Assembly: GCA_964343575.1 (NCBI GenBank)
Contig: CAYFJV010000002.1
Location: forward strand, 69,585-133,584
Length of the DNA: 64,000 nt
Source: an uncultured Methanosarcinales archaeon
GTDB taxonomy: Archaea; Nanobdellota; Nanobdellia; Woesearchaeales; GW2011-AR9
Reading direction: 5' to 3'
Shown: in pieces, positions 23,789 to 45,700 of the stretch
Layout of the letters: every line of letters starts with the position of its first letter
How positions within the stretch are numbered: position 1 is the stretch's first letter
The notes under the pieces: model-generated
Told to the model about the DNA's origin: nothing
What the model saw: only the letters and a program-made list of their open reading frames with translations
The model's database searches: none
Position numbers and translations under genes: made by a program

Positions 23789-24991
23789 TTAATCCTTTAA
23801 TTGAATGGAACGTTCAATAAGTTCTTTAAGTTTTGCTTTAATACCTTCTTCTAAGGACATAGAGATCTCTCTTGTTCGCCCATACCTTCCTTTGGAAACG
23901 ATTTTTGCATTGATGATCCCCAGCATATCAAACTCGGCTAGAATATCAGAGACTCTTCTTTGGGTAAGCACATTGAAACGTACTTTCTTACAAAGTGTTT
24001 GATACACATCATAAATCTCTCCAGTGTAGATGGTCTTTTTCTTTGGTGCAAGTAGGAGGATTGCGTAGAGGACGGCTTGAAATTGCTTTGGTTGGCTTAC
24101 TACGGCATTAATGATCTTATCTGATTCAATTTTTTTCTCTGCTTCATCAAGGTGCTCTATCTCAATTGTTTTAGAAGTGCTTCTCTCTGCTAATTCTCCT
24201 GCAACTCTGAGAAGATCAATTGCTCTTCTTGCATCGCCATGTTCTCTAGCGGCGTAGGCAGCACATTTTTCGATAACTCCGGGTTTGACAACCTCTGGTC
24301 GAAAAGCACTTTGCGCCCTTTTTCTTAAGATGTCCTGGATCTGTAAGGCATTATAAGGAGGAAAGATAAGTTCTTCTTCGCTCAGAGAAGATTTTACTCT
24401 GGGATCTAAGTTCTCTGCAAAAATAAGATTGTTAGAGATTCCAATAAGACAAATTTGTGCATTTTTGAGCTCTGAATTAATCCTTGTAAGATTATAGAGA
24501 ATCTCATCTCCTATTTTTTTAGTAAGCTGATCTATTTCATCAAGGACAAGCAAAATAAGCTTCTTTTCTTTGTCAACAAGAGAATAGAATATATTGTAGA
24601 CTTCATCTGTTGGAAGACCGGTGGCAGGAACTTCTTTACCAAACTCCTTAATGAGCTGGGCTATGAGCCGATACTCAGTATCTGCTATCCTTTTTAATTT
24701 ACAATTTACATAGATGCTTTGCAAAGGAACTTCGTTTTTCTTTGCAATCTCTTCCATTGACTGTAAGATGTATTTTATAGAGAGTGTTTTCCCGGTTCCT
24801 GTTTTTCCATAAATAAGAAGGCTAGAGGGTTTTTCTAAACGCAGAGCGGGAGCTAAGATGTTTGCAACCTCTTGAATAAGTTCCTCACGAAATAAGACTT
24901 CTGATGGAACATAGGCAGAGAGAAGATACTCTTTACTTAAAAAGATTGAATCTTTCTTAAGAAAGTTTTCGAAAAAATCTGTAATCCCCAT
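23789..24991 (-). CDS. cdc6: Orc1/Cdc6 replication initiator (AAA+ ATPase with C-terminal winged helix)
   Basis: Walker A motif GKTGTGKT, Walker B motif LVLDEID, sensor motifs and a C-terminal wH domain. Confidence 0.95.
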   Translation of the reverse strand: MGITDFFENFLKKDSIFLSKEYLLSAYVPSEVLFREELIQEVANILAPALRLEKPSSLLIYGKTGTGKTLSIKYILQSMEEIAKKNEVPLQSIYVNCKLKRIADTEYRLIAQLIKEFGKEVPATGLPTDEVYNIFYSLVDKEKKLILLVLDEIDQLTKKIGDEILYNLTRINSELKNAQICLIGISNNLIFAENLDPRVKSSLSEEELIFPPYNALQIQDILRKRAQSAFRPEVVKPGVIEKCAAYAAREHGDARRAIDLLRVAGELAERSTSKTIEIEHLDEAEKKIESDKIINAVVSQPKQFQAVLYAILLLAPKKKTIYTGEIYDVYQTLCKKVRFNVLTQRRVSDILAEFDMLGIINAKIVSKGRYGRTREISMSLEEGIKAKLKELIERSIQLKD

Positions 24992-27636: not shown

Positions 27637-29670
27637 CTATAATCTTTGCACAAAGCCCTTTTTTGGCTCAAAGATGTCTCCTGACCTTCTTAATTTGGTA
27701 AGTACCTCATCAACATCATCTTCAGAAATATTCTTCTCTTTAGCCGCTTGCATAATCATTTCAATTGGAATGATTTTTTCTCCAACTTCTTTCTCTACTT
27801 TGCTAACTAGATCTTTAATAATGCTGATTTTGCTTCGTTGTGTTGCCGTAATCTTACTGCTAATACGGTCAATGTCAATCTTTCCAGTCTCACTGTCTTT
27901 TGCAATTTGGTTAAGGCTATAATCAAGTAGCTCAATTGCTTTTTGCGCGTCTTTTTTGGTAACTTTTTTTGCCAGGCGCAACTTTGCTGAACCTTCAGCT
28001 AAACGCACCAGAGCTTCAAGCTGCCGAGCCGAAATGGGGATGGAGCGAACTCCTCCTTCTTCAACATTGCCAAAGTTTCTCATATTTACATAATATTCTT
28101 GAATCTCTTGAATTGCGGCGTCTGTAAGTTCTGGGTTTGCAGTATTTCTCACATACATGAAATATTTTTTTAAGACGTCAGTTGGAATATCTGATTTTGC
28201 TCTTTCCGGATTTTGATGAAGTTTAAGGATAAAGGAAGCCATGATTTTGTCTTTCTCTTTGCTTGGTAAATCCTTTACTGGAAAAATAAGATCAAATCTG
28301 TTGATGAGTGCCGGTGGGAGGTTGATTTGATTTGCTATTAAGTCGTAGGGATCGAATCTTCCAAACTTTGGGTTTGCTGCTGCCAGAAGAGTGGTTTCAC
28401 AGCGGAGTGTTGCTTGAATGTTTGCTTTACTCACACTTACTGTTTGCTGTTCCATCGCCTCGTGCAAGGCAGATCTATCTTCCTTGGTCATCTTATCCAT
28501 CTCATCAATAATTGCAAAACCACGGTTAGCAAGGACTAATGTTCCTGCTTCTAAGCTCCATCCGCCAAGAAATTCATCCTTAACAACACTTGCCGTAAGA
28601 CCTGCCGCGCTTGCCCCTTTACCGCTAGTAAAACGAGATTTTGGTGCAACCTTGGTTATCCTCTTAAGCAGCTGAGATTTTCCTGCTCCGGGATCTCCTA
28701 TTAAGAGCATGTGCATATCTCCTCTTGTTTTTACACCATCAGGTCTTGCTTTTTTACAACCGCCAGCGAGTTGAAGCACAAGCGCTTCTTTGATTTTATC
28801 ATGCCCATAAATGGATGGGGCGATATTTTCGGAAAGATAACCATGTACTTGAGGATGTTTAGCAATATCTTTTATCTGTTCAAGTTCGTCTTCAGTAATT
28901 TTCATCTCGGAAGGATCATTTTCCATCGGTTCAATGAAGTTCGCTTCTAAGATAAGATCATATTTAGTTGACTTTCCTCCGCTTCGTAAGGTGATTGGTA
29001 CTTCGCTTACCCAACCGTAGAGCTTTACGCGCGCCCCTGGGCTGCTTTTTCTCTCTGGGATGGGACTCACCAAGTCTCCTTTAAGAAAAACGTTCATACG
29101 CTTTGGTTGCGCGCCGTCAAGATCATCTGGTGATTCTTCAAGTACCAATGCTTGTCCATCGATGAGCTCTTTGCTCATCTCTTTGAATTTTCCCTTTCTT
29201 CCGCAAGAGCATCTGCTTGGCTCTTTGAATTTTTGATCAAGCTGCAGTACCTTGAGAATGTTCCCGCAAGATGGGCATTCAAAAGTTGCACGTGCTACAT
29301 GGGGACGCACATCACTTTTTTGTCTAACAATTCCATCACACCATAGAAATTTTCCAAGGTGTTTGCTTCGAATTTCACTTACTCTCACTTTAAGAGATTC
29401 AGGAAAGTTTTTGAGACGTACATTGAACTTGTCTAATTTTTTGGGAAGATCAAACTCTTTGATAGCTAACTCTGCAGCTTTGAGAAGGTTCTCTGGGTCT
29501 TCAATAATTTCTTCAGTAAGCTCGGTGTTAAATTTTAGGAGAGCAGAAAAGTCGAGCACCATAGAATTTTGTCCTTTTCGCACTGCTTCAAGAAGTTGCG
29601 CGTGATAGTGCTGTTCAATAAACTCTCTAAAAAGAGTAATTTGTTTGTCTACTTCCAATGTCCACCCCAA
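27637..29670 (-). CDS. mcm: MCM replicative helicase
   Basis: N-terminal Zn finger (CPSCGN...CSCG), Walker A GDPGAGKSQLL, Walker B IDEMDKM, arginine finger and C-terminal wH domain. 677 aa with no intein. Confidence 0.95.
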   Translation of the reverse strand: MGWTLEVDKQITLFREFIEQHYHAQLLEAVRKGQNSMVLDFSALLKFNTELTEEIIEDPENLLKAAELAIKEFDLPKKLDKFNVRLKNFPESLKVRVSEIRSKHLGKFLWCDGIVRQKSDVRPHVARATFECPSCGNILKVLQLDQKFKEPSRCSCGRKGKFKEMSKELIDGQALVLEESPDDLDGAQPKRMNVFLKGDLVSPIPERKSSPGARVKLYGWVSEVPITLRSGGKSTKYDLILEANFIEPMENDPSEMKITEDELEQIKDIAKHPQVHGYLSENIAPSIYGHDKIKEALVLQLAGGCKKARPDGVKTRGDMHMLLIGDPGAGKSQLLKRITKVAPKSRFTSGKGASAAGLTASVVKDEFLGGWSLEAGTLVLANRGFAIIDEMDKMTKEDRSALHEAMEQQTVSVSKANIQATLRCETTLLAAANPKFGRFDPYDLIANQINLPPALINRFDLIFPVKDLPSKEKDKIMASFILKLHQNPERAKSDIPTDVLKKYFMYVRNTANPELTDAAIQEIQEYYVNMRNFGNVEEGGVRSIPISARQLEALVRLAEGSAKLRLAKKVTKKDAQKAIELLDYSLNQIAKDSETGKIDIDRISSKITATQRSKISIIKDLVSKVEKEVGEKIIPIEMIMQAAKEKNISEDDVDEVLTKLRRSGDIFEPKKGFVQRL

Positions 29671-29820: not shown

Positions 29821-30384
29821 TTAAGCGTTAAGTAACTTTTCTAAGTTTTGGATTAACTTATCTGTTGCTTCATGCACTTCTTCTTCGGTTCGACAACCAG
29901 TACACACAATTTTCCCGTTACTGAAAAGCAAGAAGGTTGCTCGTGTTCCTTTTAGTTTGTGTACAAGACCTGGAAACTGCTCAGGCTCGTATTCTGTGTT
30001 AGGCAATTTAAGTCCTAAGAAGTTCAAATTAAGTGCCATACCAATGGATCCAGCAGCTACAATGTTCTGCACATTGATCTCAGGTTTAATGGTAACGTGA
30101 ATGTCAAGCTTTTTAAGGCTCTTAATAATGCTTTGAATACTCTTTTCTACTTCACCAAGATTTTTTGCTCCAGTACATACAATTTTTCCACTAGAGAAGA
30201 TAAGTGCTGAAGTCTTTGGATTTTTGATTCGAAGAACAAGTCCAGGAAATTGCTCTGGATTGTATTCAGTGTTTGGCAGAGTTGCTGCCATTTTCTCTAA
30301 AGGAATATCTTTTTCTAAGGAGCTGGACACAACAATGTTTACGATAGTGATTTCTTTTTTTCCTGTTTTTTTCTTTGTTGCCAT
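29821..30384 (-). CDS. tbp: TATA-box binding protein (TBP)
   Basis: Two direct TBP repeats: NIVVSSSL...GKIVCTGAKN and NIVAAGSI...GKIVCTGCRT. Confidence 0.9.
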   Translation of the reverse strand: MATKKKTGKKEITIVNIVVSSSLEKDIPLEKMAATLPNTEYNPEQFPGLVLRIKNPKTSALIFSSGKIVCTGAKNLGEVEKSIQSIIKSLKKLDIHVTIKPEINVQNIVAAGSIGMALNLNFLGLKLPNTEYEPEQFPGLVHKLKGTRATFLLFSNGKIVCTGCRTEEEVHEATDKLIQNLEKLLNA

Positions 30385-30691: not shown

Positions 30692-31579
30692 ATGGTTAGT
30701 GCTACTTTTACTCATATTCTTCTCTCTTATGGGGAGATTTTTTTGAAAGGAAAAAATAAGGGTAGTTTTGAGCAGAAGTTGCTTTCTAATATTCGAAAAC
30801 AGTGCGGTTTTGGACAAGGTAGGTTGGACTTTGAGCGAGCGGGAAGCCGTTTTCTTTTACCTTATTTCGAAGAGCATGAAAAGCTGCAAAGAGTATTTGG
30901 TTTGAGTAATTATGCTCTAGCAGTTCGAGTTGAGAAAGAAATTGAGCAAATTAAACAAGTTGCTCTTAAGTTTATGTCTGAAAAGAAAGGAACTTATCGC
31001 GTGATGGCTAAGCGAGCCGATAAACGTTTTGCTTTGACTTCTCCAGAGATTAATGTTGCGGTAGGTAGTTTTTTGGGAGAGCAGTTGGGGGAATTAGAAT
31101 TTTCTTTGAAGGGTGCAGAACATGTTTTGCATGTTGAAATTAATGAAAAGGGAGCTTTTGTGTTTTTAGAAGTTGTTTCTTGCTTTGGTGGTCTTCCAGT
31201 TGGCACCGGAGGTAAAGTTGGTGCTTTACTTGATGGGAGCGAGCAGAGTTTGCTTGCTTGTTTGCTTATGATGAAACGAGGCGTGGTTCCTATACTCTTT
31301 TCTTCTGGTCTTGTTGCTGATAAGGATTTGAAGTTGCTTCGTAGCTATTCTCCAAAGAATTTGTCGGTAGTGCAGTTTGCCGATGAAAAAGAGTTGATTG
31401 CTAAGATGTCTGCGAAGAGACTTTCTGTTTTGGTTGTTGGGCAGCAGTTTTCCACTTTTGAAGAGTTTTCTTTTGAGAAGAGAGGGGACTTGCTTGTCTT
31501 TCGTCCTTTGATTGCTTTTAGTTCTGCAGAAGTTGAGGGGAAGTTTTGTAACTTTTCTCAAGCAATTGGAAAGGAATAA
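30692..31579 (+). CDS. ThiI-like THUMP-domain protein with a degenerate PP-loop (possible pseudo-enzyme or tRNA-binding partner)
   Basis: The N-terminus (ILLSYGEIFLKGKNKGSFEQKL) matches the ThiI ferredoxin-like and THUMP domains. Where ThiI has LLSGGIDS, this protein has LLDGSEQS. At 295 aa it is about 100 aa shorter than ThiI. Confidence 0.6.
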   Translation: MVSATFTHILLSYGEIFLKGKNKGSFEQKLLSNIRKQCGFGQGRLDFERAGSRFLLPYFEEHEKLQRVFGLSNYALAVRVEKEIEQIKQVALKFMSEKKGTYRVMAKRADKRFALTSPEINVAVGSFLGEQLGELEFSLKGAEHVLHVEINEKGAFVFLEVVSCFGGLPVGTGGKVGALLDGSEQSLLACLLMMKRGVVPILFSSGLVADKDLKLLRSYSPKNLSVVQFADEKELIAKMSAKRLSVLVVGQQFSTFEEFSFEKRGDLLVFRPLIAFSSAEVEGKFCNFSQAIGKE

Positions 31580-31596
31580 AAGGAATAAGCTTTTTC

Positions 31597-31797
31597 TTGT
31601 CTCTTATGGGGATTTGGGATGGGTTTTCTAGAAGTGCTGCTGTTGCAGAAGTGGAAGAGGAGCTTACCGAGGAAGAGTTTCTTGCCTTTTCTGATTCTAT
31701 CCGTAACACTGTAACTAGTTTGCGTGGTTCTTTGCACAATTATACTAAGATTTTTAGAGAGTTTGCAGTTGAGTTGGAAGCGGCTGCGCAGAATTAA
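31597..31797 (+). CDS. Hypothetical small acidic protein
   Basis: 66-aa ORF; weak support. Confidence 0.25.
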   Translation: MSLMGIWDGFSRSAAVAEVEEELTEEEFLAFSDSIRNTVTSLRGSLHNYTKIFREFAVELEAAAQN

Positions 31798-31847
31798 TTC
31801 TTGTTCTTTTTGGAAAAATATAAGAGGAAAGATCTTTCTCTTCTTGT

Positions 31848-32397
31848 TATGGTTATTAAGTTTCTGCTTGGTTTGATCCCTTTTATTAGAAGAGAAGCTG
31901 AAGAGGAAAAAATTGCTGGTCATATTGAAAATCATGCCGAGGAGTCTGATGCTTTGGCTCGTCTTCTCATGAAACGCTTACGAGAGGTTTTCGTTGCTAA
32001 TGACTCTTTTTTCCCAAATGGTGTTCAATATGAACTTGTTACCGTAAATGGGACTGCCCCTGTGGGTAAAGTTCTTCATAGGAAGAAGAGAACCTACTTT
32101 GCAAACTTGGCGCTTGCCGAGAGAATTGTGGAAGAACTGTTTAGAAGAAATCTTATCCCGGCAGAAGACCAAGATTACTTCAAAAAATATAAGAAAGACC
32201 TTCTTGACCTTCTTGCACTTAAAGACCAAGTTGACTTTTATCGGCGTGAAGTGTTTCACAGAGCCTTGGGTCGCAAAATTTCTCTTTATATTTTTGTCTT
32301 TTACAGCCAAGGGGCTATTTCCATCTATCAAGACAAAATTTTTGCTGTCAAAGAACCTTTTGGCTTACTTGGTGGTGAAGATGATGAAGAAACTTAG
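31848..32397 (+). CDS. Hypothetical protein
   Basis: The track ORF starts at a TTG at 31801; the first ATG (MVIKFLLG) is at 31848. No family recognised. Confidence 0.35.
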
Positions 32398-32420
32398 TTC
32401 TCTTTGTTTGTTATTGTTAA

Positions 32421-34754
32421 TTACATAACTCCTTTATTGAAGTTACCAATGGTGGTTCCTTTCTTGAGCAGAGAGATGTCTCCTGGATCTTCTCCATCGA
32501 GGATTTTTTTGTAGGCTTGCACTTCTTCTTTTGCTTTTTCTAGAAGCTTGTTGCTGCAATAATCTTCTCTGAGAAATTCAAGGTAGAAATGTTTGATGCC
32601 TTGTTCTTTGAATACTTTTATTTTGTCAAGAAGAGCAACCTTTCTTGAGTAACGCATTTCTGTGTTTTGATTTGGTGTGATTAAGAGCGGGAAAGTAATT
32701 TTCTTCTCATCAGTGAGCTTCTTTTCTTCTCTTGCTCCTTTGAAATTCATTACCACTGGGCGCCCATGAGCAAAAACCATGAAGTCTTTATCTTTGAATT
32801 GAGCTAGTTCTTTGGCGTTAAGTTCGATTGAGACGATAGGGCTTGCGTTTTCTTTTTTGACTTCTTGTAGATCAATATCATTGAAGACGTTCATGGTATA
32901 GAAAAGGTGTTTTTTGAGCTTTGGAAGCCCTTTTGTGCCTTCTGAGCGTTTTAGCTCCTTGTCCACTCTGTAGAGCCCGTGGTTTGCAATCATAATTCCA
33001 CCTGGCTTTTCCTTTTCTAGAAGAATGAGTATCTTTTTGATATCTGCATCACTCAGTGTTAAGTGAGTAAAAGCAAAGAACTCTGCTTTAGGATTAAGTT
33101 TTTTGGTAAGTTGTTTTGCCTTTGCAAACCCAGGAGAGAAGATATCATAGTAGATGGTGTTTGCCTTCTTTGCAACTATTTTGAGCAGCTCTAGGGAATT
33201 CACCCTAATGTTAAGGCTTTCCTGTGTCTTTTTTTCTCCTTTGTTTTTTGTTTTGCTCCCTTTTTCTAAAATTTCTTCTGCCCTGAGCATTCCAGGAGAA
33301 GTTCTCGCTACTTTTGGTAGGAAAACTGAGTTTAGTTCCTCTTTGATTTGAGTTATGCTTGAGGAAGGTAGGAAAAGATTCTTTGGAAGTTTTCCTTCTA
33401 GCGTGATTGTAAAGAAGTTGTTTTTGTTTAGTTTCTCTTCAATAGTTTCTTTGTTAAGTGCGCTTGTCTTTGCCTGTTGTAAAAGATCTTTGCTGGCGAA
33501 AATATGTTCTTTTCCTTTCCAGTTTGTGTTGAGCTCTAGGGCTTTTCCAATCTCCGCTTGGCTAATGCTGAGGGCGAGCGGATATCTTTTATTCTTCCCA
33601 GCCAGGGGTTTTCCTTTGCTTTGTGAAGTAAGATAAACTCTTGCCCCTTCTCTGAATGAAGGGTTTGGAATTTGTACCTCTTGGCCTTTTATAGCATGTT
33701 TGATTATTTTTCCATTCTTGTCCAAGAGTTTTTGTACAAACTCTCCTTTCATTTCTCCTTTTCTTTTATCCCAAAAACCAATGCCATCATGGATATAAAG
33801 CTCGTGAAGCAACTTTATCTTTTTGTTATGCACTTCTCCTAAGAAAATTCCCCTATGGGTGGGGAGTGTTGTGCTGAGTACTTCTTTATACTCATTTTTG
33901 AGGAAGAAGCCAGTAGTAAAGTCTCGATTGAAACTCATTCTGATGCGATCAAAATCTTCTTGGGTAAATTTTTTCCAGTTTCCAGAGTAGTACCTATCAA
34001 TTGCTTCTCGATAACATTTGGTGACTACCCCAACATACTCTGGAGATTTCATTCTCCCTTCAATCTTGATGGTGTGAACCCCACTTTCGATAATTTTTGG
34101 AATTTGATTGAGCAGCGCAAGATCTTTTGGACTGAGTAAGAAGCCTTCTTTGTTGTACTCTTTACGACAACTAGAAGCGCAAAGTCCTCGATTCCCTGAA
34201 CGTTTTCCGATGAGAGATGAGATGAGGCATTGTCCTGAATAAGAAATGCAAAGATGTCCATGACAGAAAATTTCTATAGGAAATTGTGATCGCTCTGAGA
34301 TGTATCTTAGCTCGTTAAAGTCAAGTTCTCTAGCAACTACTGCCAAGTCTGCGTATTGTTGCCAATTTTTGAGGCCCGCGTAGTTCATAATGCTTGCCTG
34401 CGTTGAGATGTGTACTTTGAGATCCGGATAGCGTTCTTTAATGAATGGAAGAAGATAGATGTCTTGTACAATTACTGCATCAACACCAGCTTCGTAGGCT
34501 TTGTCAAGCGCTTTGAACCATAGATTTAATTCATTGTTTTTTATGAGCGTGTTTAATGTGAGGTTAATCTCTACTCCATGAAAGTGGGCAAGCTGTATTG
34601 CAGCTGGGAGCGTTTCAAAAGTTAAATTTCCTTTGTTTTTTCTTCTGGCGTTGAAGTTCTTCACCCCAAGATAAACTACATCAGCACCATTATTGATAGC
34701 TGCTTGCAGAGCTTCTAGTGAACCTGCCGGAGAGAGGAGTTTGAGTTTTTTCAT
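32421..34754 (-). CDS. Peptidase U32 family protein (RlhA/TrhP-type; possible RNA 5-hydroxylation factor) with a long C-terminal extension
   Basis: N-terminal U32 TIM-barrel core with the signature EIFCHGHLCISYSGQC...GNRGLCASSCR. At 777 aa it is roughly twice the length of the minimal U32. Confidence 0.8.
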   Translation of the reverse strand: MKKLKLLSPAGSLEALQAAINNGADVVYLGVKNFNARRKNKGNLTFETLPAAIQLAHFHGVEINLTLNTLIKNNELNLWFKALDKAYEAGVDAVIVQDIYLLPFIKERYPDLKVHISTQASIMNYAGLKNWQQYADLAVVARELDFNELRYISERSQFPIEIFCHGHLCISYSGQCLISSLIGKRSGNRGLCASSCRKEYNKEGFLLSPKDLALLNQIPKIIESGVHTIKIEGRMKSPEYVGVVTKCYREAIDRYYSGNWKKFTQEDFDRIRMSFNRDFTTGFFLKNEYKEVLSTTLPTHRGIFLGEVHNKKIKLLHELYIHDGIGFWDKRKGEMKGEFVQKLLDKNGKIIKHAIKGQEVQIPNPSFREGARVYLTSQSKGKPLAGKNKRYPLALSISQAEIGKALELNTNWKGKEHIFASKDLLQQAKTSALNKETIEEKLNKNNFFTITLEGKLPKNLFLPSSSITQIKEELNSVFLPKVARTSPGMLRAEEILEKGSKTKNKGEKKTQESLNIRVNSLELLKIVAKKANTIYYDIFSPGFAKAKQLTKKLNPKAEFFAFTHLTLSDADIKKILILLEKEKPGGIMIANHGLYRVDKELKRSEGTKGLPKLKKHLFYTMNVFNDIDLQEVKKENASPIVSIELNAKELAQFKDKDFMVFAHGRPVVMNFKGAREEKKLTDEKKITFPLLITPNQNTEMRYSRKVALLDKIKVFKEQGIKHFYLEFLREDYCSNKLLEKAKEEVQAYKKILDGEDPGDISLLKKGTTIGNFNKGVM

Positions 34755-34788
34755 TTTGTTTTATTTTTCTGTTTCTTGTTTATTCCAG

Positions 34789-35823
34789 TTAATTACCCAC
34801 ATATTTTGAATAAAGGGCTTGCGCTTCTTTTTCTTTCTTTGCTTTTATGAGTGCTCTTCCATCTTTGAAGATGAGAAGGTTGAAGGAGTTGTCTTTTGCT
34901 TTTATGGCGAGTGCAGTGTTGTCATAGATAGTTGTGATGTTTTCTTCTTTGTTTAGTTTTTCTTCTAGCTCTTTGAGATCGATAGCTTTATTTCCTAGGA
35001 TTTGGAAGTTTCCAGAGGAACAGAAGCGTTTAGTCCTTTCCTCCTCTCTTTCTGGGTTGAGGTGGGTGAAGTTTCCCTGACAAGTAGGACAGTTTTCTCT
35101 TCTTTTTGCTTTGAGTTTTCTCAGATCATTGTTCCAGATGTTGAAAGTGATAAGTTCTCCTTGATCTACTGTTTTGCCTAGAATTATTTTGAGGGCCAGA
35201 GTTACTTGCATGCTTGCTATGATATGTGTTGTGCTGTTCAAAACTCCAGCAGAAGCGCAGGTCTCCCCTCGCGCATTGTTTGGCAGTGCGCAGTTAAGGC
35301 AAGAGATGTTCTCTTTACCTTCTTCTTGGGTTATTGCCATAAGCATACCCTCTTTTTGGATAGCTCCAGCATAGATCCAAGGAATCTTTTCTTTTGCACA
35401 AAAGTCGTTGATGAGCAGTTTTGTTTGAAAGTTGTCTGTGCAGTCGAGTAGAAGAGAATACTCTTTTAGTTTGAGAGAAAGGATGTTTTTTGCATTAAGA
35501 TGCATGTTTTCAGTTTCTATCTTTACTTGAGAGTTAATCTGTAACAATTTTTCCTTGCAGACTTCTGCTTTGTTCTTTCCAATGTCTTTTTCTGTAAAAA
35601 GCGCTTGTCTTTGTAGATTAGAAAGCTCGATTGTGTCTCGATCAATAAGCAAGAGTTCTTGCACACCTGCTCGAACTAGAAGTTCTGCTGCCACAGTTCC
35701 AAGGGCTCCGCAGCCAATTATTGCTATTCTTGCAGCACAGATTTTTTCTTGCCCTTCTTCTTGGATGTCTGGGATGAGCATTTGTCTTGAGTACAGCTCC
35801 TTTTGTTTGTTTGTGAGTTTCAT
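34789..35823 (-). CDS. E1-like MoeB/ThiF/UbaA adenylyltransferase for ubiquitin-like sulfur carriers, with a ~90-aa C-terminal extension
   Basis: Rossmann motif IIGCGALGTVAAELLVRAGV and two CxxC pairs (CLNC...CPTC). An uncharacterised C-terminal domain follows. Confidence 0.85.
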   Translation of the reverse strand: MKLTNKQKELYSRQMLIPDIQEEGQEKICAARIAIIGCGALGTVAAELLVRAGVQELLLIDRDTIELSNLQRQALFTEKDIGKNKAEVCKEKLLQINSQVKIETENMHLNAKNILSLKLKEYSLLLDCTDNFQTKLLINDFCAKEKIPWIYAGAIQKEGMLMAITQEEGKENISCLNCALPNNARGETCASAGVLNSTTHIIASMQVTLALKIILGKTVDQGELITFNIWNNDLRKLKAKRRENCPTCQGNFTHLNPEREEERTKRFCSSGNFQILGNKAIDLKELEEKLNKEENITTIYDNTALAIKAKDNSFNLLIFKDGRALIKAKKEKEAQALYSKYVGN

Positions 35824-35826
35824 CTT

Positions 35827-36816
35827 TTATTGCGTTTCTTCTGCTTTTTGTAGCACTGCTTTGAGCTTACAAGCATTACAAACTTTTCCGTTACTTGGCT
35901 CGCCGCAGCTTTGGCAGGATTGGATGCCTTTTTTTGAACTTGTGTTTCTTGCACTGGCCATTTCTCTTTCTTTGAGTAAAGGGAGCATGTCTAGGAAAGA
36001 ATTAATGATCCCTGTTTTGGTCCCAGGGAATTTTTCTTCAAAAGTATTGAGCAAATCACGTACTTCTGCGCGGTAGCTTTGGGTTACATTTGGACACTCA
36101 GTGTATTCTACTTTGAATCCTTTGAGAAAAGTGTAGAGCCTGGTTTCTTTCTCTGAGCAAAAATAAAGTGGCTTTACTCTACGAACAAAGTCTTGGTGCG
36201 CCTCAACCCCACTTATAGGGCCGAGTTTTGCTGCAAGCTTGGTATTTGCCTTGAACAGGTTCATAAGCACAGCTTGGGACTCATCATCAAGGTTGTGTCC
36301 AGTTACTAGTTTTGTTGCCTTTAGTTCCTTTGCATATTTGTTGAGAAGGTACCTTCGCCACACACCACAGATGTTACAGGGCTTTTTTTTTGTCTCTTTG
36401 TTGATGATAGGGAATGCTTGGTCAAGTGTTTTCCCAAAGTCTTCTTCAAAAGAAGCAATTTTGAGTGGGACATCATGTTGTTTACAGAAAGTTTTGAGAT
36501 CGTCAAGTGTTTTTTCTCTGTAGTCTGCAATCCCTTCATTGATAATGAGCGCATGCAAATTGTCTCTTGGAAAGTTGTTTTTTTCCATGTACTTTTTGAC
36601 TAGATAGAGAACGGTTAGAGAATCTTTCCCTCCAGAAGCTGCAACACAAACCTTATCGTTTCTCCCGATAAGCTGAAAGCGATTAATTGTTTTGATAACC
36701 TTCTCTTCAAAATAAGAAATGAAATGTTTTTTACAAAGTTTCCCGTGCTGTAATTCGATTACTGCCTTTTCCTCGCATTTGATGCAAGAGTTTGTTTTGT
36801 TTCTTGTTTCTTGCAT
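35827..36816 (-). CDS. ncsA: tRNA 2-thiouridine synthetase, NcsA/TtuA/Ncs6 family (PP-loop ATPase with Zn fingers)
   Basis: N-terminal CxxC...C zinc finger, PP-loop AASGGKDS, central CNICG and C-terminal CQSCG...CNAC motifs. Confidence 0.85.
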   Translation of the reverse strand: MQETRNKTNSCIKCEEKAVIELQHGKLCKKHFISYFEEKVIKTINRFQLIGRNDKVCVAASGGKDSLTVLYLVKKYMEKNNFPRDNLHALIINEGIADYREKTLDDLKTFCKQHDVPLKIASFEEDFGKTLDQAFPIINKETKKKPCNICGVWRRYLLNKYAKELKATKLVTGHNLDDESQAVLMNLFKANTKLAAKLGPISGVEAHQDFVRRVKPLYFCSEKETRLYTFLKGFKVEYTECPNVTQSYRAEVRDLLNTFEEKFPGTKTGIINSFLDMLPLLKEREMASARNTSSKKGIQSCQSCGEPSNGKVCNACKLKAVLQKAEETQ

Positions 36817-36818
36817 TG

Positions 36819-37046
36819 CTAGCCCCCAGAGATGACGCTCAGGAGCAAAATGTTATCATTGTCTTGGAGAAGATCGTCAGTAGTAAGCACTTCATTGCCT
36901 CTAGTGACAAGAACGGTTTGCGCATTGACTTGAATCTCTTGAAGAAGTTCTTTGACAGTGCTGCCTTCAAAGCCTTCTAGCTTGAATGTTTGGCCCGTCT
37001 TTTCATTATGTACTTCAATGCTTTTACTTGTGCTGTTTGTGTTCAT
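36819..37046 (-). CDS. SAMP/TtuB/Urm1-type ubiquitin-like small sulfur carrier protein ending in Gly-Gly
   Basis: 75 aa with a beta-grasp-like pattern and the C-terminus ...LLSVISGG followed by the stop. It lies 3 nt upstream of ncsA in the same orientation. Confidence 0.7.
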   Translation of the reverse strand: MNTNSTSKSIEVHNEKTGQTFKLEGFEGSTVKELLQEIQVNAQTVLVTRGNEVLTTDDLLQDNDNILLLSVISGG

Positions 37047-37149
37047 TTTCCCTCCTAGACTGCTTCTAATAAGCAGAATGCTTAGGCGTTTTTTTCAGTA
37101 TTCCTTTTTCCTGAGTCCTTTTATAAGTTTTACCTGCTTATTTGCGGGC

Positions 37150-37161
37150 AAAGCTTTATAA
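37150..37161 (+). promoter_or_regulatory. BRE/TATA motif AAAGCTTTATAA about 25 nt upstream of the lipoprotein ATG at 37185
   Basis: The TATA box overlaps the ATG at 37161 used by the track ORF, which argues that the real start is the downstream ATG. Confidence 0.5.
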
Positions 37162-37184
37162 TGGCCCCCCAAACTTGGAAAAGC

Positions 37185-37772
37185 ATGAAAACTTACACAC
37201 TACCTCTTGCTTTTCTGCTTGCCTGTTCAACAGGGGAAAAAGCAGAAGAACCTGACGCAGATTCATTAGGAGAAGCAGTTTATACTGCGGATTCTGGTCA
37301 AGTGGATAGCAAAGGAGCAGACTCGGGTGTTGTGGATGAGGAGGTTGAGCCACTTTTACCAGACTTAGTTATTTTAGGTTATACTGTCGATGATACCCAA
37401 CTTACTTCTGGTAGTGTGGGCTATTCTCTTGAAATAGTAAACCAAGGAGAAGGTCAAGCGCCAAACTCAGTAATTTATACAAGTGTTAGACTTGTTAGCT
37501 CAAACGTTTGTAACGGTTCTGGTTCTGGGGGGGCTGGCCCAGCAGTTGAGGAATATACTCCAATAGAGGCATTGGCTTCTGGAGCAAGTGATACTCTTGA
37601 AGGAAGTAGAAGCTTTGGTCCAAGTGGAGAGGGTTGTCAAAAGCGAATAACTTTGGAAGTTTTGGCAACAGCAGACTGTCCAGAAGATGGTTGTCTTGGA
37701 GCAATTGTTGAGTTTGATGAGACAAACAACTCTCTTGAGTTTGTTTACGAATCTGGTCTTTTTGATTATTAA
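37185..37772 (+). CDS. Predicted lipobox-containing secreted protein with a CARDB-like domain
   Basis: Signal peptide MKTYTLPLAFLLAC|S with the lipobox LLAC. The C-terminal part is Ig-like and ends with the E-x-x-E-T-N-N motif (IVEFDETNNSLEF) typical of CARDB domains. Confidence 0.55.
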   Translation: MKTYTLPLAFLLACSTGEKAEEPDADSLGEAVYTADSGQVDSKGADSGVVDEEVEPLLPDLVILGYTVDDTQLTSGSVGYSLEIVNQGEGQAPNSVIYTSVRLVSSNVCNGSGSGGAGPAVEEYTPIEALASGASDTLEGSRSFGPSGEGCQKRITLEVLATADCPEDGCLGAIVEFDETNNSLEFVYESGLFDY

Positions 37773-37789: not shown

Positions 37790-38539
37790 TTATTTATTCT
37801 TCTTTTTAAGCTGCCAAAGTTGCCACCCCGAAATTAAAGCAAAGACAAGGCACAAATATTGCCCCATAGTAAGCCCTTGGCTAAGAATGAGGTATTCTTT
37901 GAAGAATTCTAAAAAGAAACGAATAGTAGAGAAAAGAAAGATGAAGAGCCAAAAGATGAAGCTTTCTGGAAGTTTGTTTTCCTTTTTTTGATGAAGTGTA
38001 ATGAGGGCAATAAAGATGAAGGTGTTTTGCAGCGCTTCGTAGAGCTGCACGGGGTGGCGTTTACCTTCGTATCCTTCAAAGAGAACTCCAAAAGAAGAGT
38101 TTGTTGCTCTTCCTACAATTTCTTGGTTGAGGAAATTACCGAATCTCACAAAAATAGCCCCAAGGGCTACTACAATCATACTTAAATCGGCTAGCTTCCA
38201 AAAGTTAAGTTGCTTTTTCTTCGCGTAAAGGTAGGCTCCAAGACTTCCTCCAACAATTGCTCCATGGGATGAGAGACCTCCTTCCCAGAAGAAAAGAATT
38301 TGTATGGGGTTGTAAAGAAAATGTGTTGGACTGTAGAAAATTGCGTGAAAGATTCTTGCTCCGATGAAAAGACTGATAACTGTTACAAGATAGTACTCCA
38401 TAGCAATCTCTTCTTTGATGCCTTCTTGTTTTGCTAGATATTTGAACAGGAAAAAAGAGCAGAGTAGAGCTAGCATAATCATAACGCCGTACCAGCGAAT
38501 GCTTAGAGTTCCGATTTGAAGCGCGATAGGATCTATCAT
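37790..38539 (-). CDS. lgt: Prolipoprotein diacylglyceryl transferase (Lgt) homolog, a bacterial-type lipoprotein biogenesis enzyme
   Basis: Starting from MIDPIALQIGTLSIRWYGVMIMLALLCSFF, the protein follows the Lgt N-terminal consensus (IDPVAFxIGPLxIHWYG) with about 7 TM helices. It carries the Lgt signature region GGLSSHGAIVGGSLGAY and a C-terminal basic stretch. The track ORF extends 38 codons upstream into a GC-rich intergenic region and is trimmed here. Confidence 0.6.
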   Translation of the reverse strand: MIDPIALQIGTLSIRWYGVMIMLALLCSFFLFKYLAKQEGIKEEIAMEYYLVTVISLFIGARIFHAIFYSPTHFLYNPIQILFFWEGGLSSHGAIVGGSLGAYLYAKKKQLNFWKLADLSMIVVALGAIFVRFGNFLNQEIVGRATNSSFGVLFEGYEGKRHPVQLYEALQNTFIFIALITLHQKKENKLPESFIFWLFIFLFSTIRFFLEFFKEYLILSQGLTMGQYLCLVFALISGWQLWQLKKKNK

Positions 38540-38758
38540 TTTTTGTTTTAGCTTTGGAGAAAATCTCGCTACGCTCGTGTTGGGCCGGGCAAAACATCTG
38601 CTTCTTTTTTTGATTGTGCTACGTCCCCGGATGGGGCCACCCCCGTAACGCACTCGCTTGTTTCTTCTATGATGTTTTGCGAATTGACCCCAACAACATT
38701 TCCTCCAAATCCAGTAGTTAAGCTAAGTATTTTAAAGTTGCTCGGCTTTCTCTTCTTT

Positions 38759-39379: not shown

Positions 39380-41809
39380 GTGATGTTAGCGTCAGCTCAA
39401 AAAAGAGGACATTGTAGGGATAGCAAGCGTGGGCAAGTTACCCTGTTCATAATTCTAGGAATGGTTATTCTTATCTCCGTTGGTTTCATGCTAGCGCTTA
39501 CTGCCATGATTCAGAAAGGACAATTGCAAGTTGCTGAAGAAGATGTAGTTTCCAATTTATTTCAAACCGAGAGTTTGCGTTTGTTTATAGATGATTGTTT
39601 GTATGATGCCCTTGAGGAGGGTTTAGTTCAAATTGGAGAGCAAGGGCGTTTGTGGAAAGAGCAGGATGGTGGCACTGTTCCTTTTGTTGCAGGAGAGACC
39701 GGAACCTTTCATTTTGGAAAACAGGTTTATTATGCAATCAGTTATGATAACAACAGTAATCATAGCGAGGCTTACCCTTGTTCCAATTCCACAGATCTTT
39801 CTCCTGATTATTGTCGCTACAGTTTTCCTGAGGAAGGAAAATTTGGTGAGAAGGAGCATTTGAGTGCAAGTGCAATTGAAGGAGATTTGCTCCGATACAT
39901 TACTCAGGAAGCAGCTCTTTGTATGGAAGAAGTGCTTCAAAGTAATTATTCTTTGTTCGTCCCGGTTGTTGCTGAAGAAATTGATCTTTCTTTAGATATT
40001 GCTACAAATGGCATTGCTGTAGAAGCAAGCTATCCTTTACATCTTGAGCAAGGGGGAGAAGAATACACCCAACTTACCGAGTTTGATTTTTTTTACTCTA
40101 GCTCTTTGAGCTCTTTTTTACTTCAAGCAGTAACACGCCCTATTAATGAAGAGCAAAGTGATCCAACTTATCTTTTTTCAGAAGCTGATTTGCAAAGTTC
40201 GGAGCCCTATCAACTTTTAGATCCCACTTTTACAAAAACAGAGGCGAGCAGTGGGGATACTATCATTCAATATAACTTGAACCCGGGAGTGATTCTTGAG
40301 AACCAAGATTATTTCTTTCAATTTGCTTTAGAAAATCGCCCTCCTGCACTTGACTACATTGAGCGTAATGCTTGTTTAAGTTATGATTATTTGGTTTTAG
40401 AGGGAGAGCAAGGAGATATGGGAAAATTACTTTTAGATGCATCAGCTAGTGACCCTGAGGAGGATAGCGTTACTTTTTCTTTGCTTGACGATCATTTGCC
40501 AGTGCCACTTAGTTCGGTAGATTCTGATTCTTGGAGTGCAGACTTACAAGGTGCGGCTCCAGGTTATTATAACTTCACTCTTTTAGCGGCAGATGAACAT
40601 GGTAGGACTGATTTGCAAAATGTTCGCGTCCTTCTTGATCGAGAAATCACCGCTGAATTTTCGGTCGCTTCCCCTTATTGTACTTTTGCAGGAGACCATA
40701 GTTGTTTACTCTCTACCGAAGATCCTTTTTTTGTAACACTTACTAACCCAGGAGAATCGTTAGCAGCAGACGTTGATGAAGTGCTTGAGCTTAGTTACGA
40801 TGGTTTTAATGGAGAGAGCTTTGTTTCAGGAGCTTTGTATCCTTCCTTACTTGGTGCAGAGAGTTGTATTGGTCTTCCAATGGAAACTGAGACTAGCCCA
40901 GCATCTTGTAACATTAGTGCTTACGACCCATTCATTGAAAGTTGGAAAGATTCTTTGTTGGGCCCGAGCAGTACGCACCCCTACTTAAGCCAAACGACGC
41001 CAGATGGCGAACTTAGTGTGGCCTTTTTTACAGGTTATTGCGGCGCCTGGGAGTATGAAAATAAGGAGTTCTTACATTTTGAAGTTGCAGAGTGTATCCC
41101 TCATGAAAATCTTGAGAATCCCTTCGCTTACCCTTACCACCACCAAACTTTTGATCCGATCAGCGGAGAATATCTTGGTCTTGATGAGGAAATTAGTCCT
41201 TTCTTGGCGGCCCACAGTTGTTGTAATATGAATGGAACTTACAAGGCAGCAGGCTCAAGTTGTTATGAAAGTGCTCCTGGTTGTTATGGAGGTATTGTTG
41301 GTTGGACTTCTAGCGCTCCCGGTCTTGTCTTGGAGCAGGAAAGCGATACTTGTAGTGGGCTTCGTGGGAATGTTTGTGGGACTGGAAGTTCTAAAATAAG
41401 CGAATTGTATCAAGGAAACCTTGTTTGTGGAAGCAGTTTTGATGTTTCTTGCTCTTTAGATCAAATCCCAGATGTCTGTGAAGGAAGAGATGCTTGGGGT
41501 TATGTTGATGAGAACTTTGATGGTATTAACGATGCTTGGTGTCACGGGCAAATGGGTTGTAGTGCTCTTTGCTCACTCGGCGATGGCGGGTCAGTAGTTT
41601 ATTCAGGAGGAGGAGTTGCTCCAAGTGGGCCAGAGGGCATTAACCAACAGGCAGTTTTGGGACAGGCAAGTGATGATGCTTTTGCGCCTTTCGATCCTTT
41701 TTTCTCTTTTAGTTGTGGATGTAGTTCTGCTACAGAAGGAAGTGTTTGTGATGCTAACTTTGATGGAGAATTCTTAGGGCAGTGTGTTTCTAGTGTTTGT
41801 GTTGAGTAG
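39380..41809 (+). CDS. Large (809 aa) acidic, Cys-rich extracellular protein with a class III (prepilin-like) signal peptide
   Basis: The N-terminus is ...SKRG|QVTLFIILGMVILISVGFMLALTAM, a basic tract then G|Q then a 22-aa hydrophobic stretch. The mature part is D/E-rich with many paired Cys residues. Confidence 0.6.
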   Translation: MMLASAQKRGHCRDSKRGQVTLFIILGMVILISVGFMLALTAMIQKGQLQVAEEDVVSNLFQTESLRLFIDDCLYDALEEGLVQIGEQGRLWKEQDGGTVPFVAGETGTFHFGKQVYYAISYDNNSNHSEAYPCSNSTDLSPDYCRYSFPEEGKFGEKEHLSASAIEGDLLRYITQEAALCMEEVLQSNYSLFVPVVAEEIDLSLDIATNGIAVEASYPLHLEQGGEEYTQLTEFDFFYSSSLSSFLLQAVTRPINEEQSDPTYLFSEADLQSSEPYQLLDPTFTKTEASSGDTIIQYNLNPGVILENQDYFFQFALENRPPALDYIERNACLSYDYLVLEGEQGDMGKLLLDASASDPEEDSVTFSLLDDHLPVPLSSVDSDSWSADLQGAAPGYYNFTLLAADEHGRTDLQNVRVLLDREITAEFSVASPYCTFAGDHSCLLSTEDPFFVTLTNPGESLAADVDEVLELSYDGFNGESFVSGALYPSLLGAESCIGLPMETETSPASCNISAYDPFIESWKDSLLGPSSTHPYLSQTTPDGELSVAFFTGYCGAWEYENKEFLHFEVAECIPHENLENPFAYPYHHQTFDPISGEYLGLDEEISPFLAAHSCCNMNGTYKAAGSSCYESAPGCYGGIVGWTSSAPGLVLEQESDTCSGLRGNVCGTGSSKISELYQGNLVCGSSFDVSCSLDQIPDVCEGRDAWGYVDENFDGINDAWCHGQMGCSALCSLGDGGSVVYSGGGVAPSGPEGINQQAVLGQASDDAFAPFDPFFSFSCGCSSATEGSVCDANFDGEFLGQCVSSVCVE

Positions 41810-42714: not shown

Positions 42715-45700
42715 ATGGTGGAAACGAGTAAAAAGAGGACCCTTGTAGATGTAATTCTAGCTCGAGCTTTTTTCTTTGGCCTTCTGTTTATTCTTACTGT
42801 GATTTCGCTTAACGGCGCCTTTGCTGTTGGCTTAGAAGGGTGTTACACTTATGCGGGAGGAAGCCCAGACCTTTTTTGTCAAGATGATGTCTTAGAAGAA
42901 GATGCTTTGGCTGACTATGAGCTCTTAGTTGGAGACGGGCTTTTTGATGATTATTTTTTCCCTGGGCAGAGTTGTGATGTTTTTCCTGACCTTTGTGAAG
43001 AAGTGACTTGCTCTTTGGATTGTAGCACGCAGGCGATTGGTTCTTGTGAATTTGAAGGAGGACAAGCAGTTCCAGATGATGAATATGATTTGTGGTGTAG
43101 TTGGGGTTGTTGTCAAATCCCTTCAGGTTATTGTGGTCAAGTAGATCTGCGCTCTGTTTGTGTGGAAGAAGCTTCTTACCAAGGATATTCTATCGATGAA
43201 GTAACTTACATCAGTTCAGCTTACAGTCCGATCACCACAGATGAATGTGTAGATCTTTGTGTTGCAGGATTGGAGGATGCGAGCTTAAGTGGTTACATCT
43301 TTGATGCAGCGGACGGAGTAACTCCAATTGAAGGAGCAACAGTTGAACTTCGATCGGGAGTTACAGCTCAAAGTGATGTGGCAGGATTTTATCAATTTCA
43401 AACAGTGAGCCCTGGAACTTATGTGGTAAGTGTTAGTGCAACTGGCTATTCTGGAGCTTCGCAGACAATAACTTTGGAATCTGGGGAAGTTGAAGAACTT
43501 GATTTCACTTTGAGCGTTGCAGACCAAGTAGCAAGTCTTTCTGGAACTGTGGTGGATGAGTTTGGTGTTGCAGTAGCTGACGTTTCTTTATGTTGGACTG
43601 GCCCAGGGGTTGGTTGTACTACTTCTGCAGTAGATGGTTCTTATTTGGTTAGCGAAATCTTACTTGGAGATTATACTTTTACTCTGAGTAAGTTTGGTTA
43701 TGAGACAAGTAGCGATAGTCTAAGCATTCAATCAGACCTGGTCTATGATTTTGTTCTCTTCTCTCAACCGTTCCAAGGTATTAGTGGAAGCACCTGGATT
43801 GATCCAGAAGGAGATGGTTTGCTTCTTGGCGGAACAGATTACTTGCAGTATGGGGTAAGTATCTTCGTAGATGGGATCTATCGGGGAAGTTCACAATACC
43901 CTGATGGAGATTTTAATATTTATCTTGATGAAGGAGATTATACCATAACAGCGAGCTACCTTGATTTTGTCTCTCCTGAGTACAGTGTTACTGTTCTTGC
44001 TGGACAGTCAAGTTCTGTTGATCCTGTGTTAACACAGTACATTGGAGAGTGTAGTTATGGTCAACCGGACGAGTCAAAACCAGTTGCAGAATTACATGCG
44101 GTCGCGGTTGCTGGTTCTCTTGCTGTAGATTTGAGTTGGGATAAACCTTGTGCTGAGGTGAGTGGTTATAATCTTTATCGTGACGGTGAGCTACACATGC
44201 AACTTTCACCTTTCGCTTTAAGTTTTACCGATTCAATTGATTTGGAATGGGGAATGGGTTATATCTATGGAATCCAAGCGATTTATACTGATGGTCCGAT
44301 GATTGATGACCAACCTCAAACTCGCTTTTCAGAGATTACTGAGACAAGCATCACTCTTGGAAATGCCGCTTGTGAAGGAAAAGAACCCGGAGATCTTTTT
44401 TGTCTGGCTGACGATCTAAAGTCAACTTACACTTGCGATATTTTCAACACTCTTTTGATCAGTACAAGTTGTGCTGCTTTAGATACAAGTACGAGCGATT
44501 ATTATTGTGTAGAATCAAGCCCAGGATTTGCAACCTGTAAAGACGCAGGTATGTGTAACGCCTTTACTCTTGGCGCCGATCCTTTTGGTTTGTACCACAG
44601 CGAAGAAGTTTGTTATGGCCCTTACCTTGGCGCAGAGAGCGGTTATGAGAATTATTGTTACTATGATTACACTTCTGGAGTTGTTGATCAGTGTACGAGT
44701 TGCGTGGAGGTAGAAAGTTGTTTTGATTATGTTAGTGAGGGGGCTTGTGGTATCAACAACTGTTTGGGAGTTGGTTGTCAATGGATCAACGGAAGTTCTT
44801 CTTCTGGAGAAGGAGATATTAGTGCTTATGAAGAAGAGAGCGAACCTTTCTTAGATTATGGTTACCTTTTCCCTGTGAGCGAGGAGACGGGCCATGGTTA
44901 TTGCGCCCCGCTTGAGTATGAAGAGGATGATAATTGCGCCCTTTGTTCTCCTGGAAGCAGTCTTTTTGAAAACAACTTGTGTACTCCTGAAGTTTGTACT
45001 GAATTGGGCGCTTGTTACTCTGATAAGGATTTGCCTTTGAGTACTTGCCATTCCTGTGGCGAAGAAAGTAGTCCCGAGGTGAACTGTTACAGTTATGCTT
45101 CAGAGCTGGAATGTACTGCAGGAAGCCCAACTGTGAACGATAATGGACAAATTTTGCGTTCAGCAGATAGCTGTACTTGGGGTGCTTGCGCTTGGATTGC
45201 CGATGACTTTGATCCTGCCGGTGGTTATTGTATCAAAGATGGGGATGCCAACCGTATTGATGATTGTTCTGAGTTTGTCTCAGGAGATTATTCTTCTTGT
45301 ATTGCAGATACTGCTCCGCCAGTGACTTCTTTGCAAGCAGAGGGCTTTGCAATTGTATCTGAGACATTTTCACAATTAGAATTTGTTGCTGTTGATAACG
45401 AGAGGATGGGGAGTCTGTGGTTCTGTTTGGAAAGCGCTGATGCAAGTGATTGTACTGATTTTGAAGCCGCAGATTATCCTTTCACCTTGCAGGGAGAAGA
45501 AGCTCTTTTGGAACTTAACATGAGTGAGTCAAGTTTTTTACAGTCAGAATTGGTTGATGGCGAGACTTACAAACTTCGCTTCTACTCCGTTGATGAGTTC
45601 TATAACCAAGAATCTGTACAAGAAGCTTTTGTTTTCGTTGATAACAAACTTCCCGATTTTACTGTTGTAACTGAGCCAAGCATAGATGGAGATGTTGTAG

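Follow-up and report, generated by a model that had tools for sequence, protein, structure and literature searches.

A predicted SAMP-type thiolation operon with a ThiI-like neighbour and a lineage-specific U32 gene in a Woesearchaeales genome

Gene organization of the locus

We analysed a 64,000-nucleotide (nt) stretch of contig CAYFJV010000002.1 from a Woesearchaeales archaeon (assembly GCA_964343575.1; the whole stretch is called the window below), in which neighbouring genes encode a ubiquitin-like carrier of the SAMP type, a PP-loop thiolase of the NcsA/TtuA family, an E1-like activating enzyme, a protein of the peptidase U32 family and a ThiI-like protein (Table 1). A preliminary description of this DNA had taken all five genes to act on tRNA uridines. 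Our results support that description in part: the cluster is real, yet it is no five-gene tRNA-uridine island, and we consider it likely that the locus combines a conserved thiolation core, a pseudo-ThiI neighbour and a recent U32 add-on. All five open reading frames (ORFs) were recovered at exactly the positions first given, and the domain calls were borne out by Pfam and NCBIfam. For each of the five proteins, homologues of about the same length number in the hundreds in Woesearchaeota/Nanoarchaeia, so that the ORFs are real genes rather than chance reading frames. The source names of the closest homologues, together with the archaeal replication and transcription genes near the locus (Table 1), mark the host as a DPANN archaeon of the Woesearchaeota/Nanoarchaeia type. 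Rfam and tRNA scans of the region gave no matches.

The minus-strand genes are closely packed, with spacers of 2 nt between SAMP and NcsA/TtuA, 3 nt between NcsA/TtuA and E1 and 34 nt between E1 and U32, the last of which is A-rich and has no oligo-T run. In front of SAMP we identified by eye a TATA-like element (TTATAAAA, 37126-37119) and a Shine-Dalgarno sequence (AGGAGG, 37056-37051), the SAMP ATG being at 37046; we infer that this pair represents putative promoter and ribosome-binding signals of the operon. Because the E1-U32 spacer is short, joins genes of the same strand and lacks an oligo-T run, and because the leader signals precede SAMP, the four genes SAMP-NcsA-E1-U32 probably form one transcription unit. 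The trio had been described as a three-gene minus-strand operon with the U32 gene upstream of it. The tight trio stands, but the U32 gene follows downstream of E1, in the same orientation, and is probably the fourth gene of the unit. The ThiI-like gene is read from the other strand towards U32, and 840 nt with a pair of orphan ORFs lie between the two.

Table 1. Features of the locus and of its surroundings (positions in the window; aa, amino acids)
Feature	Position	Strand	Size or extent	Basis or remark
ThiI-like (PH1313-type) gene	30692-31579	+	295 aa	ORF call
Orphan ORF pair	31597-32397	+	66 aa + 198 aa, single frame	ORF call
U32 gene	32421-34754	-	777 aa	ORF call
U32 second lobe	32424-33260	-	residues 499-777	degenerate U32-like TIM barrel, no conserved cysteine
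U32 DUF3656 region	33336-33596	-	residues 387-473	PF12392, 24.3 bits vs 22.1 cutoff
E1 gene	34789-35823	-	344 aa	ORF call
E1 TBP-like (helix-grip) domain	34792-35076	-	residues 250-344
NcsA/TtuA gene	35827-36816	-	329 aa	ORF call
SAMP gene	36819-37046	-	75 aa, C-terminal GG	ORF call
Putative operon leader upstream of SAMP	37051-37126	-		read from sequence
PolD DP2	17646-21251			neighbouring replication gene
PolD DP1	21926-23716			neighbouring replication gene
Cdc6	23789-24991			neighbouring replication gene
MCM	27637-29670	-	677 aa	neighbouring replication gene
TBP	29821-30384			neighbouring transcription gene
ORF between SAMP and Lgt	37161-37772		203 aa
Lgt gene	37790-38653	-		PF01790, 1.7e-63
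Cysteine-rich ORF	39380-41809	+	809 aa	apparent hydrophobic start (translation)
Giant ORF	42715-49140	+	2141 aa

The sulfur-relay core

The SAMP translation terminates in VISGG directly before the stop codon and matches the ThiS family (PF02597, 28.7 bits against a cutoff of 22.5), with weak NCBIfam matches to ThiS and SAMP2. A ThiS-family ORF is the first gene of the operon also in the relatives L001, L086 and L087 and in about 15 metagenome loci. The NcsA/TtuA protein contains a PP-loop ATP_bind_3 domain (Pfam) and scores above the cutoff of TIGR00269 (83.4 bits), while the NCBIfam models for Pyrococcus TtuA (205.5 bits) and NcsA (204.9 bits) are both matched below their cutoffs. Its matches in the PDB are PH0300 TtuA (6e-51), Methanococcus maripaludis NcsA (6scy, 4e-47) and Thermus thermophilus TtuA (5e-40), with scores of 176 for TtuA and 164 for NcsA. 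In particular, the protein carries an N-terminal (C11xxC14...C28xxH31) and a C-terminal (C301xxC304...C313xxC316) zinc finger, the PP-loop S61GGKDS and the iron-sulfur (Fe-S) ligands C147xxC150 and C241.

The E1 matches ThiF in Pfam (PF00899, 1.4e-70) and in the PDB (5e-42), followed there by MoeB (4e-39), and falls under the NCBIfam cutoffs for UbaA (NF047750, 155 vs 450), ThiF (214 vs 275) and MoeB (200 vs 449). The G37CGALG and D127CTDN motifs, the zinc cysteines C175/C178/C245/C248 and the crossover-loop C189 are invariant or nearly so in an alignment of 36 homologues.

The three genes carry all the sequence hallmarks of a relay in which a ubiquitin-like carrier passes on sulfur for the 2-thiolation of tRNA, and the earlier reading of the trio as a 2-thiouridine relay encoded in a tight operon is supported; the operon is also conserved. 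Given the intact motifs and the characterised TtuA/TtuB/TtuC and NcsA/SAMP2/UbaA systems, the E1 would adenylate the C-terminal Gly-Gly of SAMP, which would then become a thiocarboxylate; the PP-loop of NcsA/TtuA would adenylate C2 of the target uridine, and the same enzyme would exchange the adenylate for the sulfur of SAMP-COSH by means of its three-cysteine [4Fe-4S] site. The target is most likely U34, judging from the low GC content of the presumably mesophilic host, with U54 as the alternative.

The core is thus of a known kind, a textbook thiolation system of the Urm1/SAMP type. With TtuA/TtuB/TtuC of T. thermophilus and NcsA/SAMP2/UbaA of Haloferax volcanii (and with the eukaryotic Ncs6-Urm1-Uba4 system) it has in common a ubiquitin-fold carrier ending in GG, a ThiF-type E1 with a tetra-cysteine zinc site and a crossover-loop cysteine, and a PP-loop thiolase with two zinc fingers and a three-cysteine Fe-S site. 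It differs from them in that all three genes stand in one operon with 2-3 nt spacers and in that the NCBIfam equivalog cutoffs are missed. The E1 also has a TBP-like domain, where UbaA and TtuC have no such addition and Uba4/MOCS3 has a rhodanese.

A TBP-like domain at the C terminus of the E1

The preliminary description had noted an unassigned C-terminal domain of about 90 residues in the E1. The extra residues, about 95, are there, but they can be assigned: they form a single TBP-like domain, not a rhodanese fold with a persulfide cysteine. The NCBIfam model NF009123 covers the two-domain protein over practically its full length (residues 8-343 on positions 2-338 of 338; 247 bits against a cutoff of 510). 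The domain is retained in all close homologues (97-100% coverage) and contains an invariant Cys268 (FCSSG) and an F-x-DGRA-L-I motif. A profile search with the domain yielded 511 clusters, nearly all of the E1-TBP architecture and including bacterial proteins, in which the invariant cysteine is retained.

MoeB homologues that end in a TBP domain were listed earlier as a small "ThiF-MoeZ-MoeB" group to which no function was attached (Brindefalk et al. 2013, PMC3597702). This group, found in archaea and bacteria (NF009123/PRK12475), has the same two-domain architecture as the window E1. It comprised three members and was given no genomic context, whereas here the architecture extends to hundreds of Woesearchaeal proteins with an invariant cysteine, and the Woesearchaeales gene resides in a SAMP-NcsA operon, which points to tRNA thiolation and not to molybdopterin synthesis. 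We infer that the domain would be a docking or sulfur-handling module in place of the rhodanese of Uba4/MOCS3.

Descent of the domain from a recent duplication of the nearby TBP gene was considered and rejected, as hhalign gave a probability of 2% and the likeness is limited to an LF-x-G motif. The profile also retrieved two proteins unrelated to E1 enzymes, P0435 (1244 aa, eight matched stretches) and P0466 (574 aa, from a frog, four stretches), which contain tandem copies of a related segment.

The ThiI-like protein lacks a PP-loop

The ThiI-like protein matches the ThiI_fer (PF22025, 1.9e-12) and THUMP (PF02926, 3.2e-12) families, and the full-length ThiI model TIGR00342 aligns over positions 1-197 of 373 only (115 bits against a cutoff of 264.5). 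It consists of a ferredoxin-like domain, a THUMP domain and a truncated Rossmann-like domain without a PP-loop: the loop reads LLDGSEQS where ThiI has LLSGGIDS (the SGGxDS motif). The protein stops about 90 residues early and has neither the catalytic cysteine equivalent to E. coli C344 nor the [4Fe-4S] triad, and none of its own cysteines (38, 164, 190 and 286) is conserved. In an alignment of 120 homologues, about 115 Woesearchaeal proteins of 260-295 aa show E[ND]-xxS and the same loss of the PP-loop, whereas genuine ThiIs of 371 aa retain SGGIDS and the C-terminal cysteines.

The same degenerate loop is seen in PH1313 of Pyrococcus horikoshii (1VBK), described in the literature as a ThiI-like protein whose PP-loop domain is shortened and whose activity is unconfirmed (PMC9957541). 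PH1313 and the window protein share the ferredoxin-like, THUMP and shortened PP-loop-type domains and are of comparable length (307 vs 295 aa), the degenerate SGGxDS motif being ILH-DELS in the former and LLDGSEQS in the latter. The similarity is distant (E 1e-20), and the Woesearchaeal family is set apart by its fixed position convergent to the operon.

On this evidence the protein is a conserved pseudo-ThiI of the PH1313 class. With neither a PP-loop nor the catalytic C terminus, it is predicted to be unable to adenylate U8, so that the known chemistry of 4-thiouridine at position 8 (s4U8) would be impossible. The tRNA-binding ferredoxin-like and THUMP domains are kept; the protein thus probably retains tRNA binding and at most would bind or present tRNA. 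The original call of a THUMP/ThiI-like protein therefore holds for the domains but not for a tRNA-uridine enzyme.

The slot of the ThiI-like gene between E1 and TBP is occupied by an unrelated 127-aa ORF or by nothing in L088 (6913-7296), L139 and the JGI contig 3300072015, and the pseudo-ThiI is thus dispensable in those lineages.

The U32 protein has an RlhA-like architecture

Peptidase_U32 (PF01136, 1.5e-70) is accompanied in the U32 protein by DUF3656 (PF12392), as in most Woesearchaeal homologues, a combination reported to occur in no U32 subfamily other than RlhA (PMC5727448). RlhA is the synthase of 5-hydroxycytidine (ho5C) at position 2501 of 23S rRNA (Kimura et al. 2017, PMC5727448); about half of the RlhA1 proteins carry a second C-terminal U32 motif, and RlhA homologues occur in some archaea (PMC5727448). 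The window protein likewise has a second C-terminal U32-like lobe, as in the long RlhA1 + RlhA2 forms of Clostridia and Bacteroidia (PMC5727448).

A direct sequence search of the PDB gave no match. In BLASTP comparisons with the E. coli paralogues (from NC_000913.3) the scores were 160 bits for RlhA, 139+51 for TrhP, 159 for UbiU and 41 for UbiV. The hhalign profile of the U32 family, in turn, is collinear with E. coli RlhA (YdcP) over 541 columns and with TrhP over the 284 catalytic columns only. Since BLASTP could not discriminate among the paralogues, we call the protein RlhA-like on the basis of its architecture and of the profile alignment. Residues E161, C169, C176, C192 and C196 are invariant among 32 sequences, and E161, C169 and C176, which are essential in both RlhA and TrhP (PMC5727448, PMC6599085), bear the same numbers as in RlhA. 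Identity to E. coli RlhA is about 34%, over the N-terminal 300 residues only, and the hosts belong to different domains of life, the window organism being an archaeon. No cysteine is invariant past C196; in the C-terminal 530 residues the sole cysteine, C733, is nonconserved.

With E. coli TrhP (YegQ), the enzyme for 5-hydroxyuridine at position 34 (ho5U34) of tRNA, the protein shares the U32 catalytic domain at 38% identity over about 200 residues. It has no match to the TrhP-specific Peptidase_U32_C domain (PF16325), lacks the TrhP-specific insertion and scores 208.8 bits against the 534-bit cutoff of the TrhP model NF011996. TrhP orthologues have been reported in bacteria only (Sakai et al., PMC6599085). 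Of the earlier assignment to an RlhA/TrhP type, the RlhA half is supported by DUF3656 and the collinear profile, and the TrhP half is not, the likeness being confined to the catalytic core. A UbiU/UbiV type is not supported: the NCBIfam cutoffs are missed (190.6 vs 440 for UbiU, 17.4 vs 275 for UbiV) and a protein of 777 aa is unlike the short, single-domain, UbiT-paired proteins.

The protein is therefore probably an RNA (rRNA) hydroxylase that resembles RlhA in architecture, though we stop short of calling it an orthologue of RlhA. Most likely it would act as an Fe-S hydroxylase on rRNA rather than on tRNA.

A conserved core and a lineage-specific U32 gene

The conservation of the gene order was assessed from a U32 profile scan of species-representative genomes and an E1 profile scan of metagenomes; every locus found was then searched with the window proteins, and individual contigs were inspected. 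The order Rpp30 / SAMP-NcsA-E1 / convergent ThiI-like / TBP-MCM-OB-SpoIIM occurs in L001, L006, L086 and L087, and the same core order in about 12 metagenome loci with E1 identities of 43-51%. The thiolation operon with the ThiI-like gene is thus an old arrangement. It is part of a long collinear block of Woesearchaeota, at 17646-39334 of the window, that comprises PolD DP2, DP1, Cdc6, SpoIIM, OB-fold, MCM, TBP, ThiI-like, E1, NcsA, SAMP and (Rpp30).

The U32 gene behaves differently. Among 85 U32 loci, E1, NcsA, SAMP or ThiI-like genes lie within 10 kb only in L001/L002/L007, which represent one species, and in L006; the U32 proteins of the window and of these two sister species are about 60% identical and form one clade in a neighbour-joining tree (no bootstrap). 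Near the U32 gene of about 45 other Woesearchaeal loci there are no thiolation or ThiI-like genes, and U32 is absent from all 80 metagenome E1 loci. In the metagenome-assembled genome (MAG) GCA_964498285.1 the operon (L088) and U32 (L030) are on separate contigs, and a comparison of 47 Woesearchaeal loci showed no gene that is regularly found next to U32. In L001 the E1-U32 spacing is zero. Because U32 joins the operon in three species only and is absent at the other loci, it is an insertion specific to this lineage, placed between E1 and the ThiI-like gene. Its translocation to the 3' end of the operon would date to the last ancestor that the window organism shared with the two sister species.

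The preliminary description had named scattering of the genes in related genomes as an outcome that would tell against it. SAMP-NcsA-E1 and the ThiI-like gene are indeed conserved in order, but U32 is scattered and joined to them in three species.

In two further loci, L095 (7976-8800) and L098 (7949-8534), an extra 600-800 nt separate the E1 gene from the ThiI-like gene convergent to it. The U32 insertion of the window's clade lies at the same junction, which may thus be prone to insertions.

Interpretation of the locus

We thus favour, as the likely reading, a conserved thiolation core with a pseudo-ThiI neighbour and a recently added U32 gene, whose co-transcription would be either an accident of this lineage or a sign that RNA modifiers dependent on Fe-S are loosely co-regulated, with no conserved functional coupling. 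Action of all five genes on tRNA uridines fails for U32, with its RlhA architecture, and for the ThiI-like protein, which has no PP-loop.

Several observations weigh against the favoured reading. The adjacency of the ThiI-like gene is weak functional evidence, because the gene sits inside the larger PolD-Cdc6-MCM-TBP collinear block, and L088, L139 and one JGI contig do not have it at that place. The scores of the TtuA and NcsA models are equal, so that the sequence does not separate U34 from U54, and the window ORFs tested included neither a cysteine desulfurase nor a rhodanese that could donate the sulfur. Many E1-TBP loci of lower identity have no NcsA neighbour, and the bacterial ones (Isachenkonia and a Planctomycetes MAG) have no adjacent TtuA or ThiS genes. 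As to U32, BLASTP places it about equidistant from RlhA, UbiU and TrhP, and the neighbour-joining tree has RlhA nearest to it, a placement that carries no bootstrap values and is not relied on. Prephenate, the proposed oxygen donor, may be absent from a reduced DPANN genome. The protein also lacks counterparts of the C580/C611 pair, which is essential for ho5C formation in E. coli RlhA (PMC5727448).

A single selected, co-regulated island for tRNA-uridine modification, responsible for 2-thiouridine (s2U), ho5U34 and s4U8, would account for the contiguity of the five genes in 6.4 kb, with four probably co-transcribed, for the retention of the five-gene order in two sister species at just 41-76% protein identity, and for the kinship of U32 with the tRNA hydroxylase TrhP. 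In known systems, however, ho5U and s2U sit on different tRNAs. The linkage of U32 to the operon is limited to three species, the U32 protein is RlhA-like and devoid of PF16325, TrhP orthologues are reported in bacteria only (PMC6599085), and the ThiI-like protein has neither the PP-loop nor the catalytic cysteines, and we hold such an island to be quite improbable. Still less probable, in our estimate, is an adaptive coupling of U32 to the sulfur relay, through the same RNA or through shared Fe-S or sulfur, or else a non-RNA substrate as for UbiU/UbiV. In favour of this reading are likely co-transcription across the 34-nt spacer, the zero spacing in L001, the retention of the arrangement in three species, a UbiU score in BLASTP equal to that of RlhA and the missing C-terminal cysteine pair. 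Against it stand the lack of any such linkage in other lineages, the presence of DUF3656, the collinear alignment to RlhA and the absence of genes of a quinone pathway from the window ORFs tested.

The SAMP-E1 pair might instead serve mainly for protein conjugation (sampylation or urmylation) or supply sulfur to molybdopterin or thiamine, with NcsA as one client or target. Archaeal UbaA and SAMPs have dual functions, the best NCBIfam scores of the E1 are to MoeB/ThiF models, SAMP matches ThiS, and E1-TBP proteins often lack an NcsA neighbour. Against this stand the 2-3 nt spacing of SAMP, NcsA and E1, their adjacency in this order in about 15 lineages, and the absence of MoaE, ThiG/ThiH or JAMM genes among the window ORFs tested; we give this alternative, which can coexist with the thiolation reading, a small chance of being the principal role. 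To about the same low degree we entertain a streamlined thiolation machine, in which the TBP-fold domain of the E1 would replace the rhodanese or a partner sulfurtransferase, through a persulfide on C268 or through tRNA docking, and the pseudo-ThiI would present the tRNA. If true, this would be a thiolation machine without description in any organism and would give the E1-TBP and PH1313-like families their first functional context.

Of these points, the main value of the favoured reading is corrective, in that the U32 and ThiI-like proteins are unfit for annotation as tRNA-uridine enzymes of one pathway. The operon context ties the E1-TBP architecture, known since 2013 with no function attached, to tRNA thiolation and exposes its invariant cysteine, and the PH1313-type proteins, for which a structure is solved, emerge as a large conserved family without a PP-loop and with a fixed site by the thiolation operon. 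U32 proteins of RlhA architecture are near-universal in Woesearchaeota, which raises the questions of whether ho5C occurs in archaeal rRNA and what the oxygen donor would be where prephenate may be lacking.

Neighbouring genes and further observations

The orphan ORFs between the ThiI-like and U32 genes share a single frame and are split by an in-frame TAA at 31795-31797. The 198-aa ORF has no Pfam or NCBIfam match and no tblastn match in related loci or viral contigs. The pair could be a single gene of about 265 aa interrupted by a stop codon; it could also be a pseudogene, or the two ORFs could be separate small orphans. The sister genome L001 has no such gap, and its ThiI-like and U32 genes overlap.

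On the other side of the locus, a bacterial-type prolipoprotein diacylglyceryl transferase gene (Lgt) and a 203-aa ORF are inserted between SAMP and the RNase P gene Rpp30, two genes that lie side by side in other Woesearchaeota; L041 and L130 also have homologues of Lgt. Two long plus-strand ORFs, of 809 aa (cysteine-rich) and 2141 aa, lie nearby (Table 1). The window MCM is intein-free, and in several relatives (L001, L087 and a JGI contig) MCM contains an intein with a LAGLIDADG endonuclease and reaches 1058-1136 aa.

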